Shown here piece after piece: positions 4,122-59,688 of a DNA stretch of 64,000 bases (the stretch's first letter is position 1; each line of letters opens with the position of its first letter). Source of the stretch: Candidatus Harrisonbacteria bacterium RIFCSPLOWO2_01_FULL_44_18. GTDB lineage: Bacteria > Patescibacteriota > Minisyncoccia > UBA6257 > WO2-44-18. The notes below the pieces were generated by a model. That model made no database searches, was not told the DNA's origin, and was given only the letters and a program-made list of their open reading frames with translations. Location of the stretch: the NCBI GenBank assembly GCA_001817915.1, contig MHJJ01000014.1, positions 3,695 to 67,694 on the forward strand, written 5' to 3'. Made by a program: the position numbers and the translations under genes.

Positions 4122-5840
4122 ATGCTAACGAAACTTTATTGGATTTTAGCAATTGTTTTAATTTTGCTTATCGGTTTAGCCGGATTTTTTTGGTTTCAAT
4201 CCCGTTCAAATCAAGGCTTGGATTTGCAAATTAACGCTCCCGACGAAGTTTTAATTGGAGTGCCTTTTGATTTGGAAATCAACGTAACCAACGATTCCGG
4301 CGGCATTTTAAAAGACAGCAAACTTTCATTGGCCATTCCCGAAGATGTCGTGTTTGTGGGAAGCGCCGTCGGTAAAACCGTGGAATATAAAACATTGGGC
4401 AATTTGGGCGTCGGCAATTTGACCAAAGAAAGTTTTAAACTGATGGCGTTGGGCGAGGAGAATAGCTTGAGGCAAATCGAAGCCACCCTTAGTTATTTGC
4501 CGACTTCTTTGGGATCGCGATTTGAAATCGTAAAAAAAATTGATTTGGAAGCGGGCCAATTCGGCTTAGTTGTTGATTTAACGGCGCCGGAAAAAGTTTT
4601 CAGCGGCGAAGATTTTGAGATCGCCGCTTCTTATAAAAATGTTTCCGGCATTGATCTTTCGGGCCTTATCCTTAAAATGGAATATCCGCCGACGTTTAAT
4701 TTTATAGAATCTTCCTTGGAGCCGGACGCCGGGAACAATGTTTGGAATTTGGGAGATTTGCGGCGAGGTTCGGAAATGGAATTTAAAATAAAAGGAAACC
4801 TTATCGGCCCGGACGATTCATTTTTTGATTTAAGAGCCAGCCTAGAGGCCAATTTTTTGGGTAAAACCTATGTCATCAGCGGTAAATCGGCCAACGTCTC
4901 TATTTCGCCGTCGCCGCTCTCTTTGCGAATTTTCCTAAACGAGGATCCTGATTATGTTGCCGGGCCGGGCGATGTTTTAAATTATTCTCTGGCCTACGCC
5001 AACAACACCGACGTCGCGCTGCGGGACGTTGTTATTGAAGCGAAATTAATCGGTGAAATGTTTGACCTAAAAACTTTAAATACTAACGGAATTACCCGTT
5101 CCGGTGAAAACGCGCTGGTTTGGAACGCGTCAAATTTGCCCGAGCTGGCAGTTTTACCGGTCGGCGCTTCCGGGACAGTGAATTTTCAGACAAAAGTCGC
5201 GAACAGCTACCCCATAAAAAGATTGAGCGATAAAAATTTTGTTCTAAAAGCGGAAGCTCAAATTGAGTCGCCGACTGTGCCGTATTTTGTGGGAGCGCGG
5301 AAAACAGTCGGTCTGGCAAAGCTGGAAACTAAAGTTGCCGGGCAAATAAAAGTTGATACCAAAGTGTATTTTCGAGACGCGGCTTCAGGAATTTTGAATA
5401 AAGGGCCGATGCCTCTTAAAGCGGGGCAACCGACTCAATTTACCGCGCATTGGTTTATTACTAATTTTGGAACAGACGTCAGCGGCGTGGAAGTCAGAGC
5501 ATTTTTGGAAGGAAATGTTAGAATGATAGCAGATAAAACAAAGAGCAATAGCGGCGCTCTTCCGGTTTATAACGAAAGAACGCAGGAAGTGGTTTGGCTG
5601 ATAGATCGGATTCCGGCTACTAAAGGAGTAATCGGCGACCCCCTTGAGGCGATTTTTCAAATTGAGGCAATGCCTTCCGCTAATTTGGCCGGGACTTATA
5701 TGCCGCTTATAAAAAATAGCTCAATAACCGCCACGGACGATTTTACCGGATTAAAATTAAGCGGTTCGGATTTAGCCGCGACCACCGCGCTGCCGGACGA
5801 TCCGACAGTCGGTCCGCAAGGCGGCATCGTTAAGAATTAG
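4122..5840 (+). CDS. hypothetical membrane-anchored surface protein with repeated beta-rich segments
   Basis: 572 aa with an N-terminal TM segment (LYWILAIVLILLIGLAGFFWF). Long ORF, no domain I can name confidently. Confidence 0.6.
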   Translation: MLTKLYWILAIVLILLIGLAGFFWFQSRSNQGLDLQINAPDEVLIGVPFDLEINVTNDSGGILKDSKLSLAIPEDVVFVGSAVGKTVEYKTLGNLGVGNLTKESFKLMALGEENSLRQIEATLSYLPTSLGSRFEIVKKIDLEAGQFGLVVDLTAPEKVFSGEDFEIAASYKNVSGIDLSGLILKMEYPPTFNFIESSLEPDAGNNVWNLGDLRRGSEMEFKIKGNLIGPDDSFFDLRASLEANFLGKTYVISGKSANVSISPSPLSLRIFLNEDPDYVAGPGDVLNYSLAYANNTDVALRDVVIEAKLIGEMFDLKTLNTNGITRSGENALVWNASNLPELAVLPVGASGTVNFQTKVANSYPIKRLSDKNFVLKAEAQIESPTVPYFVGARKTVGLAKLETKVAGQIKVDTKVYFRDAASGILNKGPMPLKAGQPTQFTAHWFITNFGTDVSGVEVRAFLEGNVRMIADKTKSNSGALPVYNERTQEVVWLIDRIPATKGVIGDPLEAIFQIEAMPSANLAGTYMPLIKNSSITATDDFTGLKLSGSDLAATTALPDDPTVGPQGGIVKN

Positions 5841-5971
5841 GATTTTCCGTCAGAGGCGGATTCGCCTTCGGCGGAGGAATACAGAATTTAGGATTTAGGT
5901 ATAGGATTGGATAAATTCTACTTCCCTAAATTCTAAATTCTATATCCTATATTCTATTTTCAAAATCAACT

Positions 5972-9848: not shown

Positions 9849-11344
9849 AAAAGTTTTATATTACCACTTCCATTGTTTATGTAAACGCGCCTCCGCATGT
9901 CGGTTTCGCGTTAGAATCCATTCAGGCGGATGTGTTAGCTCGGTATCATCGCCAAAAAGGCGATGAGGTTTTTTTTCTGACCGGCGCGGACGAGCATGGC
10001 GCTAAAATTGCGAGAGCCGCCGAGGCAGTCGGTAAAGATTTTCAGTTATTTGTTGACGAAATTGCCGCGAAAGTTAAAAAACTTAAAGACGTCCTGAATT
10101 TATCCTGGGACGATTTTATAAGGACCACTGATAAAAAACGCCATTGGCCCGGCGCTCAAAAATTATGGCGCGACATGGCCGCGGCCGGAGATCTTTATCG
10201 TAGAAAATATCGCGGCCTATATTGCGTTGGACACGAGGCGTTTGTTACCGAAAAAGATTTAATTGACGGCAAATGCCGAGATCATCAGAAGGAGCCGGAA
10301 GTTATTGAAGAGGAAAACTGGTTTTTTCGGTTATCAAAATATCAAAAGAAAATAGAATCAAGCATCAAGAAAAATAAATTAAGAATAATTCCGGAAGGGC
10401 GAAGAACGGAGGTTTTGTCTTTCATTAAAGAAGGCTTGGAGGATGTCAGCTTTTCTCGGCCGCGAAAAGATTTGTCTTGGGGTATCTCCGTGCCGGATGA
10501 CGAAACTAGCACGATGTATGTTTGGTGCGACGCTTTGGCGAATTATATTTCCGCCATCGGCTATGGCCAACAAAAAAGTTCTCCGCCGAAGGCGGATCCG
10601 CCTCAGGCGGAAAAGTTCACGAAATGGTGGCCTGCCGACATTCATTTAATTGGAAAAGATATTTTAAGATTTCACGCTTTGCTTTGGCCGGCGATGCTTC
10701 TTTCGGCAAAATTGCCGCTTCCTAAAAATATCTTTGTTCATGGGCATTTAACCGTTGATGGGCAAAAAATGTCCAAGAGCGTCGGCAATGTAGTAGATCC
10801 ATTTGAATTAGTCGCGAAGTATGGCATTGATCCGGCGCGCTATTATCTTTTGCGTGAGATTCCCAGCGGAGAAGACGGCGATTTTAGCTATAAAAAGCTT
10901 AAAGAAAGATACAACGGCGATTTAGCTAATGGCCTTGGGAATTTTGCCGCGCGCGTTTTAACTTTGGCGGAGAAATTGGGGGAGATAAAAGTTGATTTAA
11001 AAAGCGATGTTGATAAAGCAGTGGCTAAAAAAATCAAGGCGGTTCAAAAGAAAGTTGATGAAAAAATCACCGAATTCAAACTGCACGAGGCTTTAGCGGA
11101 AATTTGGGATTTGATCGCTTTTGGGGATAAATATGTTAATGAGAAAAAACCGTGGAACGCGTCGCTTAGCGTGAATGAAAAAGCGCGAACCATTTTTAAT
11201 TTAATCGCGATCTTGGATAATGTGGCGGCAATGCTATCGCCGTTTTTGCCGGAAACTTCTAAAAAAATTACCGAGAGCATTCATTGGTTATCAAAAAATA
11301 CTTTGAAAATTAAAAAATCCGCGATGCTTTTTCCGCGGATTTAA
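9845..11344 (+). CDS. metG: methionine--tRNA ligase
   Basis: 499 aa. The YVNAPPHVGFA (HIGH-like) and KMSKSVGN motifs are present. ATGA overlap with the upstream gene. Contains the palindrome-encoded insert SPPKADPPQAEK. Confidence 0.92.
   Translation: MKKFYITTSIVYVNAPPHVGFALESIQADVLARYHRQKGDEVFFLTGADEHGAKIARAAEAVGKDFQLFVDEIAAKVKKLKDVLNLSWDDFIRTTDKKRHWPGAQKLWRDMAAAGDLYRRKYRGLYCVGHEAFVTEKDLIDGKCRDHQKEPEVIEEENWFFRLSKYQKKIESSIKKNKLRIIPEGRRTEVLSFIKEGLEDVSFSRPRKDLSWGISVPDDETSTMYVWCDALANYISAIGYGQQKSSPPKADPPQAEKFTKWWPADIHLIGKDILRFHALLWPAMLLSAKLPLPKNIFVHGHLTVDGQKMSKSVGNVVDPFELVAKYGIDPARYYLLREIPSGEDGDFSYKKLKERYNGDLANGLGNFAARVLTLAEKLGEIKVDLKSDVDKAVAKKIKAVQKKVDEKITEFKLHEALAEIWDLIAFGDKYVNEKKPWNASLSVNEKARTIFNLIAILDNVAAMLSPFLPETSKKITESIHWLSKNTLKIKKSAMLFPRI
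10581..10614. repeat. small GC-rich palindromic element (ccgccgaaggcggatccgcctcaggcgg) in frame in metG
   Basis: Related copies occur at 5851-5877 (intergenic) and 25713-25744 (downstream of tRNA-Ser). Confidence 0.75.
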
Positions 11345-14703: not shown

Positions 14704-14745
14704 GATTTCGGGAATCGATAGATACTTCTATCGATTCCCGAAATC
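14704..14745. repeat. palindrome of the gatttcgggaatc family
   Basis: Sequence gatttcgggaatcgatagatacttctatcgattcccgaaatc. More arms lie at 14773-14811 and 37541-37598. Confidence 0.85.
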
Positions 14746-22772: not shown

Positions 22773-23402
22773 TTAGAAATGGAAGGCGGCACCGGTTAAC
22801 AAGAAGAATAAGCCATTTATGGCAAAAGAAATAATCGGACTTAAAAACGGCAAAAGGATTATGACAATCAGCAGGCCGAACATGCCAAGACGGTCAAAGT
22901 TTTGTTGCTGGTGAGGCGAAAGGTTTAAAATTGTCCCCAATAGCTTGGATCCGTCCAAAGGGGGAATGGGTATCAAATTAAACAGGCCGAGGATTAAATT
23001 AATAAAGACCATTAAAGCTAGCAGGGATGTTGCAAGTTCGCCGACGGAAAATAAGAGTAAAAGTCGTAAAATCAATCCGAAGACAATTGCCAAAAGGAAA
23101 TTAGTAGCCACTCCGGCAAATGATACCCAGAACATTCCTTTGCGATAACTGAAAAATCTGCTCGGGTCTATTGGCACCGGTTTTGCTCCGCCGAGAATAA
23201 AAGGCGAGCCCATCAGTATTAGCGCGGCAGGAAGCAAAAGCGACATTAAAGGGTCAATGTGAGGAATCGGATTAAGCGTAAGCCGCCCGGCCAACTTTGC
23301 GGTAGGATCGCCAAATTTCAGCGCCATCCAGCCGTGAGCTATTTCATGTAGAATTGCCGAAAATATGAGGATTGCCAAGACCGTAATCCACCAGACCAGC
23401 AT
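22773..23402 (-). CDS. site-2 protease family (M50) membrane metalloprotease
   Basis: HEIAHGWMA (HExxH) sits in the first TM region; the protein is polytopic. Start moved to MLVWWITV behind AGGAGG; the longer ORF runs into palindrome N3. Confidence 0.8.
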   Translation of the reverse strand: MLVWWITVLAILIFSAILHEIAHGWMALKFGDPTAKLAGRLTLNPIPHIDPLMSLLLPAALILMGSPFILGGAKPVPIDPSRFFSYRKGMFWVSFAGVATNFLLAIVFGLILRLLLLFSVGELATSLLALMVFINLILGLFNLIPIPPLDGSKLLGTILNLSPHQQQNFDRLGMFGLLIVIILLPFLSPIISFAINGLFFLLTGAAFHF

Positions 23403-23404
23403 GA

Positions 23405-23631
23405 GCCACCTCCTTTCATATAAATCTCTGTCTGACTTCCGATGTCCCCAATATTGATAATTTTCCGAAGGGCAATCGGCTGGAAGCCGATCGGACATCG
23501 GAAGTCTCAATATTAGGACATCCGATATCCGTCCCGATGTTCATCGGGATCGCCTGCGGCGAGAATATAATATTTGGGATATCGGATGTCTGCCAGCAGC
23601 GCGACCGAGAGCTTATATGAAAGGAGGTGGC
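23405..23631. repeat. compound nested palindrome N3
   Basis: Perfect 18-bp outer arms gccacctcctttcatata / tatatgaaaggaggtggc. Inner pairs are gacttccgatgtcc/ggacatcggaagtc, catccgatatcc/ggatatcggatg and cccgatg/catcggg. Confidence 0.9.
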
Positions 23632-23761
23632 CGCGCCTCCTCAATTTTCAATGAACCGCAATGTAAGTTAAATTATTGTATAGAATGGTTTCGATGTCAA
23701 AATCAGATAGGTTGTCGCGATTATTGCATATCAGACTTGGATTTATTAAATTATATATTAC

Positions 23762-23835
23762 GGGCCTATAGTGAAGCGGTATCACGGATCCATGGCATGG
23801 ATCAAGTCGGGGTTCGACTCCCCGTAGGTCCACCA
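23762..23835 (+). tRNA. tRNA-Ala(GGC), CCA encoded
   Basis: GGGCCTA-TA-GTGA-AGCGGTA-TCAC-G-GATCC-ATGGCAT-GGATC-AAGT-CGGGG-TTCGACT-CCCCG-TAGGTCC-ACCA, with G3:U70. Confidence 0.9.
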
Positions 23836-23981
23836 GACAGGAAATTGCAAGCGAGGCGACTGCCCCTGTTTTAGGCAGGCACATTTGGCGGGTTTTTATA
23901 TACTAGAGAAACGGGCGCGTTGACTACGCGTCACGGCTTCATATATTATATTTCTGTACGTTGAAAGGGGGTAAGCCGGCT

Positions 23982-24464
23982 ATGATCAAAGTCGCGCTTT
24001 TTAATGAAATTTCCCATGAATTAGGCAATACTCTTCTTGTGGATGTCACAAGCAGGATCGTTGAAAGGATTAATAATCTTTTGAGGCAGTTGTCAGTCAA
24101 CGCTCCATATTGGACTATCGGATGTTTCGCGGAGTTTTTGCGGCAGTCCAATAATCATTTAGTTGTTGCTATTGATGGCAAAATTATTGCTGGTATGGGA
24201 ACGGTTATTTTGAGCTATTCTTTAATGGGCCGTCACGCGAGGATCGAGGATGTGATTGTAGATAAACCATATCTCGGTAAGGGTTTGGGTCGAAAAATTG
24301 TCGAGGAATTAATCAGAATCGCCAACAAGGAAGGAGCAAGATGGATTGATTTAACCAGCAATTCTTCGCGAGTCGGGGCACTGAAGCTTTATAGAAGCTT
24401 GGGATTTAAGGATGTGGCGACAAATTGTTTGCGGCTGGCTTTGGGAGAGCAGGATTCGAGCTAG
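23982..24464 (+). CDS. GNAT family N-acetyltransferase
   Basis: The segment IEDVIVDKPYLGKGLGRKIVEELI is the acetyl-CoA binding motif (Q/RxxGxG/A). Start chosen at MIKVALF. The last codons lie in an arm of N4. Confidence 0.8.
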   Translation: MIKVALFNEISHELGNTLLVDVTSRIVERINNLLRQLSVNAPYWTIGCFAEFLRQSNNHLVVAIDGKIIAGMGTVILSYSLMGRHARIEDVIVDKPYLGKGLGRKIVEELIRIANKEGARWIDLTSNSSRVGALKLYRSLGFKDVATNCLRLALGEQDSS

Positions 24465-24713
24465 CATCAATTTAGTGAGCCAATTCCCGCCCATCTTCTT
24501 TGTTACTCGTCGCTTATGTGCCTATTGGCACACTACGCTCCTCGCGCCTTGAATCTGGACAGGAATTGGCTCACCCGAAGGGAAGAGAGAATTTGAGCCA
24601 AGTTCGAGGAACGACGAGGAGGTTGTGCTGGTAAGCACATCGACGAGGAGTGACAAAGAAATTGGCTCAAATTCTCTCTTCTAAATTTGACGCCAGTTCG
24701 AATCCTGCTCTCC
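24444..24713. repeat. compound nested palindrome N4
   Basis: Outer arms ggagagcaggattcgagctagcatcaatttag / ctaaatttgacgccagttcgaatcctgctctcc. Inner arms tgagccaattcc/ggaattggctca and aagagagaatttgagccaa/ttggctcaaattctctctt. Shares about 60 nt with 48682-48751. Confidence 0.9.
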
Positions 24714-24737
24714 TAGAGAAATAACCGCGGTTTCAAA

Positions 24738-25595: not shown

Positions 25596-25607
25596 TCTAT
25601 TCAAAGC

Positions 25608-25694
25608 GGAGGGTTGGCAGAGTGGTCTAACGCGCCGCACTTGAAATGCGGTTTCCCGGAAACGGGATCACAGGTTCGAATCCTGTACCCTCCG
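25608..25694 (+). tRNA. tRNA-Ser(UGA)
   Basis: GGAGGGT-TG-GCAGAGTGGTCTAACGC-G-CCGCA-CTTGAAA-TGCGG, variable arm TTTCCCGGAAACGGGATC, ACAGG-TTCGAAT-CCTGT-ACCCTCC-G. Confidence 0.9.
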
Positions 25695-25765
25695 CTTTGA
25701 ATAGAAACTTGTCCTCCGAAGGAGGATCCGCCTCCGGTGGAAAATGCGGTATCGCAACCAAAAAG

Positions 25766-31470: not shown

Positions 31471-31612
31471 CGAAGTAATCGCGAACAACGCGAATCTATG
31501 CAAAATAATGCTAATAATTTATTCGCGTTATTTCGAATCAGATTAGCATTATTCGCGATTACTCCGATTCGTGTTATTTTGAAACAAATTAGCATTATTC
31601 GCGATTACTCCG
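31471..31612. repeat. pilus-operon junction repeat, copy 1 (stop of pilM to start of pilN)
   Basis: Starts cgaagtaatcgcgaacaacgcgaa immediately after the TAA and ends attagcattattcgcgattactccg immediately before the ATG. Confidence 0.9.
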
Positions 31613-34966: not shown

Positions 34967-35108
34967 CGAAGTAATCGCGAACAACGCGAACCTATGCAAA
35001 ATAATGCTAATAATTTATTCGCGTTATTTCGAATCAAATTAGCATTATTCACGATTACTCCGATTCGTGTTATTTTGAAACAAATTAGCATTATTCGCGA
35101 TTACTCCG
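34967..35108. repeat. pilus-operon junction repeat, copy 2 (pilB to pilT)
   Basis: More than 90% identical to copy 1 by eye and ends directly at the pilT ATG. Confidence 0.9.
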
Positions 35109-36182: not shown

Positions 36183-36331
36183 CGAAGTAATCGCGAACAA
36201 CGCGAACCTATGCAAAATAATGCGAATACTGTTAACGGAGCAATCGCTAATAATGCGAATTTTGGCAAAATAATGCTAATAATTTATTCGCGTTATTTTG
36301 AATCAGATTAGCATTATTAGCGATTACTTCG
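36183..36331. repeat. pilus-operon junction repeat, copy 3 (pilT to pilC)
   Basis: Has the same termini as copies 1 and 2, with a different internal segment. Confidence 0.9.
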
Positions 36332-48664: not shown

Positions 48665-48681
48665 CGTCAATCCCGCGCCTA

Positions 48682-48751
48682 GGAGAGCAGGATTCGAACT
48701 AGCGTCAAATTTAGAAGAGAGAATTTGAGCCAAGTTCGAATCCTGCTCTCC
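48682..48751. repeat. 19-bp-stem hairpin related to N4 (probable metK terminator)
   Basis: Stem ggagagcaggattcgaact / agttcgaatcctgctctcc. The loop shares sequence with 24444-24713. Confidence 0.85.
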
Positions 48752-48810
48752 TATTATCCGCCTAAATGGCGGATTTTTGTTTTTGAATAAACAAGTTATA
48801 ATTAAACTTA

Positions 48811-51219: not shown

Positions 51220-51296
51220 TATATAATAATTCCGCTAAAATTTCTAAAGTTCCTTAGTTCCTTGCGTCAAAGATTTATATAAAGGGAGGTGGCAGG

Positions 51297-51557: not shown

Positions 51558-51623
51558 GCGATGAACAGGGCCCAGCCGTAATTTCAAAACACCCTAACGG
51601 GTGCTTTTTGTTTCAGCAGTCTG

Positions 51624-51698
51624 CGCGGGCGGCCGGATTTGAACCGGTGACCTTCCGCGTGACAGGCGGACGCTCTAACCAGACTGAGCTACGCCCGC
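51624..51698 (-). tRNA. tRNA-Asp(GUC)
   Basis: GCGGGCG-TA-GCTC-AGTCTGGTTA-GAGC-G-TCCGC-CTGTCAC-GCGGA-AGGTC-ACCGG-TTCAAAT-CCGGC-CGCCCGC-G. Flanked by an 11-bp inverted repeat. Confidence 0.88.
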
Positions 51699-51728
51699 GC
51701 AGATTGCTGGAATACCTTTGTTAATATA

Positions 51729-59303: not shown

Positions 59304-59549
59304 TCATTCGCGTTCATCATCGGATTTTTCTTGTTCTTCGGGATCAATTCCAATTAGTTCAAACTTCCTTTTTTCAAGCTTTTCCAGCGCCTCAATCAAC
59401 GGCATATCCATTTGTAAAAATCCTTTTTCAATGTGCCCTGCGCAGATTTTAAGAAATCTATCAATCCATAAGGCTTCATGGAGGGCGTCTACCGCTTTTT
59501 CTTCTTCTTGCTTAAAAAATTCATCCGCTTCGCGATCTATGTTGCCCAT
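59304..59549 (-). CDS. hypothetical acidic small protein
   Basis: 81 aa. RBS GGAGGTGGCAG sits before the ATG. Confidence 0.5.
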   Translation of the reverse strand: MGNIDREADEFFKQEEEKAVDALHEALWIDRFLKICAGHIEKGFLQMDMPLIEALEKLEKRKFELIGIDPEEQEKSDDERE

Positions 59550-59688
59550 CTGCCACCTCCTTTCTATACCTATAGTCTAGTTTAATCCATTATAACTCAT
59601 AAAATCAAACGGAATTAAAATCTTGCATTATTGCGTTAATTATGTAAAATTATCACAGTTCTTTACAACCACAATTTAGAGGTCAACG

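Follow-up and report, generated by a model that had tools for sequence, protein, structure and literature searches.

In the window, the 64,000-nt stretch of Candidatus Harrisonbacteria DNA analyzed here, a gene for a 209-aa protein of the M50 (site-2 protease) family (22773..23402, minus strand; Pfam PF02163; assigned by NCBI to Candidatus Harrisonbacteria, locus tag A2745_01540) is preceded by a complete 227-nt palindromic repeat element, copy 1 (23405..23631), whose identical boundaries recur on contigs L081/L089/L093 and L082/L103. Upstream of the element, on the minus strand, lie a short GAGGAGG sequence, here called copy 0 (23636..23642), and a promoter-like site, TTGACA-17-AATAAT (23672..23700), that agrees with the consensus at 11 of 12 positions, and beyond these is a gene for tRNA-Ala(GGC) (23762-23835). 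Only mechanical ORFs of at most about 43 aa lie wholly inside the 227 nt. An Rfam gathering scan of the whole window returned tRNAs only, and a scan of 23350-23760 at E ≤ 10 gave no match.

The element is bounded by an inverted repeat, GCCACCTCCTTTCATATAA / TTATATGAAAGGAGGTGGC, whose arms (23405-23423 and 23613-23631, 189 nt apart) are 100% complementary over 19 bp, one more than the preliminary description had counted in its perfect outer arms. Between them lie two hairpin modules. Module 1 (23434..23506) consists of a perfect 14-bp stem (GACTTCCGATGTCC/GGACATCGGAAGTC, 23434-23447 / 23493-23506), a CCAATATTG box and an inner hairpin (ATCGGCT/AGCCGAT, 23475-23491); module 2 (23517..23590) has a perfect 14-bp stem (GACATCCGATATCC/GGATATCGGATGTC, 23517-23530 / 23577-23590) and two perfect inner hairpins, TCCCGATG/CATCGGGA at 23532-23549 and another at 23551-23561. 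The three inner inverted-repeat pairs first described (23434-23506, 23517-23590 and 23532-23549) are all perfect, but the four nested levels into which they had been ordered are not there: the two 14-bp hairpins stand side by side, so the maximum depth is three. Three features had gone unremarked in that description, namely the inner hairpin of module 1, the inverted homology of the two 73-74-nt hairpin units (28 nt, 82%), which makes the whole region one quasi-palindrome centered on AATATT near 23511, and the nature of each 14/15-nt stem arm, itself a near-palindrome, GGAyATCsGATrTCC, with inverted pairs 45-46 nt apart. The palindrome pattern is real and far above chance, with 6 matches to the 14-mer motif against 0.87 expected and 3 matches to the arm sequence against 0 expected. 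Palindromes and repeats do confuse assemblers, and hybrid junctions between copies exist; however, the 227-nt sequence is identical in long contigs from independent samples and assemblers (Rifle aquifer), and the probability that the palindrome is a chimeric assembly artefact is negligible.

The sequence that faces outward from each terminal repeat is a near-ideal Shine–Dalgarno (SD) site, GAAAGGAGGTGGC. On the minus strand the gene-proximal repeat (23405..23423) reads TTATATGAAAGGAGGTGGC and is followed by TC and by the ATG of the M50 gene at 23402, giving AAAGGAGGTGGC-TC-ATG with a spacer of 6 nt between GGAGG and ATG. No other SD is present, and the arm, as had been proposed, serves as the predicted ribosome-binding site (RBS) of the M50 gene. 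The gene-distal repeat (23613..23631, minus strand) reads GCCACCUCCUUUCAUAUAA in the sense of the M50 mRNA, an anti-SD that complements the SD arm at every position. In its own outward direction it faces only an ORF at 23617-23874, which overlaps tRNA-Ala(GGC) and was rightly regarded as spurious. The string GCCACCUCCUUUC may be a copy of the 3′ end of the lineage's 16S rRNA beyond the core.

Metagenome contigs were scanned with the pattern TCCGATRTCC-N35-60-GGAYATCGGAWGTC, for which fewer than one match would be expected by chance on our own rough estimate, and 43 stretches were returned. When the scanned loci were compared with the window by blastn, L081/L089 (99.1% identity) and L082 (98.7%) matched over 23405-23631 only. 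Similarity among the three near-identical copies ends exactly at the ends of the 19-bp arms (23405 and 23631), and the flanks are unrelated; the element is thus discrete, and its limits coincide at no fewer than three loci. The proteins neighboring the near-identical copies are all from Candidatus Harrisonbacteria and bear A2745_* locus tags, which places the copies in the window's own genome or species. In total, within a genome sampled in parts, we count three copies at 98.7-99.1% identity, two diverged composites and two solo-arm remnants. The diverged composites, L055 (11072-11377) and L067 (identical to L076; starting at 1961), keep the arm and one hairpin resembling module 2 and have a different second module. 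In L055 the arms have changed in a compensatory manner from TTTC/GAAA to TTCC/GGAA, and the loop of the second hairpin holds ~62 nt more than in L067. A single hairpin module also occurs alone (L054). Both solo remnants lie in the window: a 26-nt element end, CAAAGATTTATATAAAGGGAGGTGGC (51268..51293, plus strand), which differs from the end of the element at 3 of 26 positions and stands 3 nt before the ATG (51297) of an 86-aa orphan gene, and a 17-nt arm, TATAGAAAGGAGGTGGC (59552..59568, minus strand), 2 nt before an ATG at 59549. Related RBS strings had already been noticed before these two unrelated orphan genes; the GGAGGTGGC that they share is explained by remnants of the same family.

These copies bear directly on the proposal that the palindrome grew by repeated insertion of hairpins into one another's loops, for which recurrence of the whole unit unchanged at many loci had been named in advance as contrary evidence. 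The whole unit does recur at other loci, at 98.7-99.1% identity and between unrelated flanks, which argues that it propagates as a single element and was not built by successive insertions at the M50 locus. The proposal survives for the history of the family, during which modules have become nested, as judged from the different second module of L055 and L067, the loop block of L055 and the lone modules. A palindrome made at this locus alone, by stepwise hairpin insertion or by template-switch inverted duplication of the native RBS, would agree with this modularity, and quasi-palindrome correction could explain both the perfect arms and the covarying flank of L081. It is nevertheless unlikely, because an identical finished unit with identical ends stands at three loci, and the M50 copy must therefore have arrived, or been converted, as a whole.

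Contigs from many assemblies terminate inside the element, which is explained by the presence of a ~227-nt repeat that exceeds the assembler's k of 141. The repeat likewise explains hybrid joins at these sites. In contigs L094 (2873-3200) and L096 the rplL and GerMN flanks are connected through the element, L107 (1268-1500) joins the 99-aa gene to the 141-aa gene described below, and L115 (640-990) joins the L067 copy to the L055 copy. The joins occur in both reciprocal forms, with the crossover within the identical central 174 nt, and are either real recombination between copies (inversion or deletion polymorphism) or assembly chimeras. Such breaks, together with perfect inverted repeats around a short segment of a divergent promoter region and weak promoter-like sites inside it on both strands, might also suggest an inverton, in which a recombinase acting at the 19-bp repeats inverts the 189-bp interior and so switches the M50 gene or the tRNA on or off. 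This is scarcely credible: every contig examined shows a single orientation per locus, the breaks have the simpler explanation just given, the interior is so nearly palindromic that a flip would change little, and no recombinase gene is adjacent.

Taken together, the copies argue that the 227-nt palindrome is probably one copy of a nonautonomous, multicopy palindromic repeat element of the MITE/REPIN type. As in MITEs, which are about 100-400 bp long, it is short (227 nt), lacks transposase coding, has perfect 19-bp terminal repeats and occurs in several copies at unrelated loci; as in REPs and REPINs, short imperfect palindromes are arranged as inverted doublets that form a hairpin. Against this reading, the copy number seen is small (three near-identical copies, two diverged and several remnants). 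In the parts of the genome that were read, about eight hairpin modules were seen; REP/REPIN sequences number tens to hundreds per genome. No direct repeat indicative of target-site duplication is present at any of the four complete copies; the flank carries an inverted SD-like copy instead. There is no transposase inside the copies, and in the loci examined, which cover parts of the genome, we found neither a transposase or parent insertion sequence with these ends nor a longer segment lying between two arms. An empty site at copy 3 was sought among strain variants of its PPIase neighbor, all of which carry the element or break inside it. Searches of phage and plasmid collections with the element (blastn) and of viral contigs with the hairpin pattern gave no match.

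The association with gene starts extends beyond the M50 locus. At four of the five composite copies the arm (GAAAGGAGGTGGC) ends 2-3 nt before a start codon, and the spacing between GGAGG and the start is always 6-7 nt. The junctions read GGAGGTGGC-TC-ATG at the M50 gene, GGAGGTGGC-GGG-ATG at a 99-aa orphan gene downstream of rplJ-rplL, GGAGGCGGC-TAT-ATG at a 141-aa orphan gene served by the opposite end of the element, and GGAGGTGGC-TA-GTG at a gene for a DUF502 membrane protein. From these junctions, four of the five composite copies appear to supply the SD of the adjacent gene, for unrelated genes and in either orientation. In an unrelated Logan contig (L111, 1380-1420), thyA is preceded by AGCTTATGCGAAAGGAGGTTGCCA-GTG, which resembles the subterminal and SD end of the element, and solo ends may accordingly be widespread in related lineages.

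At their far end, all five composite copies adjoin a short SD-like sequence that is the inverted complement of the SD core of the arm. With the junction marked by a bar, the flanks read GAGGAGGcgcg|GCCACC in the window, GAAAGGAGGTGGCt| at L082, AAAGGAGGTGGtt| at L055, AAGGAGGta| at L067 and GGAAGTGta|GCCACTTCC at L081, where flank and arm variant agree. All five can form a junction hairpin with a stem of 6 bp or more, for which the chance per random flank is 0.006. In the window the flanking sequence is copy 0, separated by 4 nt from the distal arm, the anti-SD, with which it can pair; it is presumed to be the original SD of the M50 gene. When the element was excised in silico from arm to arm, a flanking GGAGG came to lie 6-8 nt from the start codon at four of four loci (6 nt for M50).

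Relatives offer a partial view of such sites. A Logan contig, L049, whose M50 protein is 88% identical, has the same tRNA-Ala/M50 intergenic region, with a promoter-like TTGACA...TACAAT and a leader, and no palindrome. Before the M50 start it reads GGGCGCG-GCCAGAAAGGAGATGACAG-ATG, which is 19 nt more than the window without its element (GAGGAGGCGCG-TC-ATG). The additional nucleotides correspond to GCCA, the first 4 nt of one arm, and GAAAGGAGaTGaC, the last 13 nt of the other, and are more likely the footprint of a deletion than part of a virgin site. If the M50 insertion does predate the split from this relative, then the 99% identity among paralogous copies needs gene conversion or reinsertion. 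A 75% identical DUF502 orthologue (L113) has two tandem SDs: AAGGAGGT / CAAGGAGGT comes first, and after it ~40 nt that look like the L055 copy at its proximal end, closing with GAAAGGAGGTGGTCG-GTG. Distant orthologues of the 141-aa gene have a plain SD, 1-2 nt and then the start codon (AAGGAGTTGCCT-GTG and AGGAGGGGCCAG-ATG). A scan of GTDB genomes with the M50 protein found no full-length relative above 52% identity and one partial match at 65%.

These junctions and relatives suggest a model for how the element inserts. Integration would take place in the short spacer that separates a gene's native SD from its start codon, with the element head-to-head to that SD, whose sequence resembles the element's own end. 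The native SD would thereby become an upstream decoy (copy 0), and the far arm of the element would become the working SD at the same spacing of 6-7 nt; because the spacing is unchanged, insertions would be tolerated in a compact genome. Later deletions of the interior would leave solo arms that persist as RBSs. We lean toward this model, taken as a whole with insertion into the SD-start spacer, takeover by the far arm and later solo arms. More tentatively, and on balance doubtfully, SD mimicry by the ends could be the targeting principle itself, such that a transposase or recombinase takes host SDs for pseudo-ends and inserts in the spacer, each insertion creating a three-part switch of decoy SD, anti-SD and new SD.

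How such an insertion would affect the M50 mRNA depends on where transcription begins. The promoter-like site upstream of the element is conserved in the element-free L049, whereas the internal σ70-like promoters, present on both strands of the element, match at 9 of 12 positions at best and are too weak to rely on. In the full leader from the upstream promoter, the computed probability that the M50 SD is unpaired is 0.000 at both 37 and 15 °C; it is 0.66 for the SD of the L049 leader at 37 °C and 0.42 for the M50 SD in a transcript from the weak internal site near 23557. With transcription from the conserved upstream promoter, the predicted fold would thus bury the SD completely: the two arms would pair as a 19-bp helix, sequestering the SD and lowering translation. 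The repression might be lifted if copy 0 paired with the anti-SD arm, if an RNase III-type enzyme cut the long helix, or if the weak internal promoters were used. As a whole this regulatory model is possible, and we hold it with slightly less than even confidence. A permanently buried SD before a conserved protease gene would be awkward unless some mechanism of relief exists. The three near-identical copies differ by five substitutions, three of which fall in the arms and all of these weaken arm–arm pairing; the arm substitution of L081 in addition perfects pairing with its copy 0, the decoy. The numbers are small, and the arm substitutions are suggestive of selection for expression.

The same data could be read as a gene-specific structured 5′ leader RNA (a riboswitch, thermosensor or protein-binding leader) whose SD/anti-SD helix governs translation of the M50 gene, much as the preliminary description had offered a long structured RNA as its second explanation. 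With a conserved promoter upstream, the palindrome would lie in the 5′ UTR; its fold is very stable (−121 and −128 kcal/mol for the plus and minus strands, with z-scores of −8.96 and −8.93) and buries the SD; and the upstream GGAGG could be an anti-anti-SD. However, the same 227 nt stand at unrelated genes, which they serve in either orientation, they are missing from the orthologous M50 leader of the 88% relative, and no Rfam family matches even at E = 10. Moreover, every helix is perfectly Watson–Crick, with no G-U bias, and the strands fold equally well, so the fold is no specific evidence for RNA function and fits a palindrome at the level of DNA. A dedicated leader RNA of the M50 gene is thus very improbable.

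The hairpin modules belong to a wider family built on GGACATC[C/G]GATGTCC. Its members lie on contigs named Patescibacteria or Kaiserbacteria in several groundwater data sets, and by this distribution the family appears to be Patescibacteria-wide. One subfamily shares the layout of the modules, with a 14-bp stem, a CAAATATT box and two small hairpins. Compensatory changes occur at 10 of 25 predicted pairs of the module, the architecture of which is conserved across eight copies. Single modules also lie in-frame in conserved genes (L054:12865-12939, L083:2258-2325, L087:162-247, L052:3035-3119 and L056:4067-4148), where they encode ...TSDV...TSDV peptides that add ~23-29 residues and split the Pfam domain matches; the genes concerned are those for archease (in the same Harrisonbacteria genome), NAD-dependent DNA ligase (LigA), PrmC, a GT4 glycosyltransferase and a PMT-like protein. 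In other genomes, generic GGACATCsGATGTCC hairpins are not consistently beside gene starts, so the association with RBSs is a property of the SD-armed composite only.

This distribution also speaks to a further alternative, that the four 15-bp near-palindromes GGAyATCsGATrTCC form an operator array for a dimeric regulator of the M50 and tRNA-Ala genes. Each arm is indeed a dyad-symmetric 15-mer, and the motif is conserved in many Patescibacteria contigs. Yet it is also found within coding sequences and beside unrelated genes, and it is absent from the M50 promoter region of the relative, making an operator array highly improbable. Binding of the 15-mer by some protein is quite plausible, but such a protein would more likely be a recombinase or transposase belonging to the element than a regulator of genes.

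Other hairpins of the window touch on the same family. The double mini-hairpin TCCGCCGAAGGCGGATCCGCCTCAGGCGGA stands free at two places in the window (10576-10617 and 5831-5875) and has matches in L056, L059 and L080, those of L056 and L080 being inside the loop of the larger hairpin module, a further sign of module nesting. A perfect 19-bp hairpin at 14704-14745, GATTTCGGGAATCGATAGA/TCTATCGATTCCCGAAATC, carries the GGATTTCGGGAATC motif of which the second module of L055 and L067 is formed. A TIGR- or CRISPR-like array was considered and rejected, there being no regular period and no associated gene.

Among the characterized repeats most like the 227-nt element are the Correia/NEMIS elements of Neisseria, MITEs of 105-155 bp with terminal inverted repeats of 24-26 bp that lie near gene starts, are cotranscribed as long hairpins and alter the expression of their neighbors, and whose hairpins are cut by RNase III at the inverted repeats (PMC10969869; PMC2229807). 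The Harrisonbacteria element is likewise small, noncoding and intergenic by gene starts, with long terminal inverted repeats, and by analogy its own helix may be cleaved by RNase III. In contrast to Correia elements, with which it shares no sequence similarity, it lacks a TA target duplication and an IHF site; its terminal repeats form an SD/anti-SD pair rather than promoter elements, and its interior consists of two REPIN-like hairpin modules. REP, REPIN and BIME sequences, which are mobilized by RAYT (Y1) transposases, are short near-palindromes arranged as inverted doublets and mosaics without target duplication. The unit of the present element is similarly a near-palindrome (15 nt in this element and as long as ~37 nt in related contigs) that forms inverted doublets and mosaics without target duplication, but the copy number seen is low. 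REPs with SD sequences at their termini, or placed in the spacer between SD and start codon, are not known.

Two other groups of palindromes share single traits with the element or its relatives. Rickettsia palindromic elements (RPE) insert in-frame into genes (PMC2229807; PMC10969869). So does the wider hairpin family, in the genes for archease, LigA, PrmC and glycosyltransferases, whereas the 227-nt composite is intergenic and the host phylum and the sequence are different. ERIC/IRU sequences are 127-bp imperfect palindromes in transcribed intergenic regions, the RNA fold of which alters the fate of the mRNA in an orientation-dependent manner (PMC2229807). They differ from the Harrisonbacteria element in having TA duplications and short inverted repeats, in acting via exposure to RNase E and in providing no RBS. 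As for the junctions, transposases of the IS30 and IS3 families can target inverted repeats, inserting head-to-head within a few bp of a sequence like their own end (IR-IR junctions). The present element also adjoins, head-to-head and within a few bp, a sequence like its own end; this is an analogy only, and here the "IR-like" target is the SD of the host. Overall, the comparison suggests a MITE/REPIN-like repeat that would work like MITEs of the Correia and ERIC type and is built like REPIN mosaics. Our literature search found no description of such palindromic elements in Patescibacteria (CPR) or of SD/anti-SD inverted repeats, of which one review makes no mention, and no elements of either kind are known to us.

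Correia, ERIC, REP and RPE sequences are known both as regulators and as shapers of genomes among the small palindromic repeats. If the insertion model set out above is true, then a selfish element survives in a genome that has next to no intergenic DNA to spare by replacing the RBS that it disrupts, and the host gains a hairpin for translational control as a by-product. The in-frame copies in LigA, archease and PrmC would be a second case, independent of Rickettsia, of the tolerance of proteins for selfish insertions. Should targeting by SD mimicry also prove true, then together with the sister in-frame insertions it would constitute a previously undescribed, Patescibacteria-wide system that rewires RBSs and proteins in very small genomes.

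The window contains further inverted repeats. The genes for tRNA-Ser(tga) and tRNA-Asp (25596-25705 and 51611-51712) are bracketed by perfect or near-perfect inverted repeats of 19-21 bp that extend the acceptor stem by ~12 bp and may form an unusual helix for pre-tRNA processing. Clusters of inverted repeats at 24439-24718 and 48680-48753 have arms that resemble the 3′ halves of tRNAs (GTTCGAATCCTGCTCTCCTA) and may be another, tRNA-derived repeat family. Finally, the repeat CGAAGTAATCGCGAACAACGCGAA forms inverted pairs at 31471-31612, 34967-35108 and 36183-36331, and 32-33 nt at L055:12285-12317, in the same genome, match these sites at 97-100% identity.
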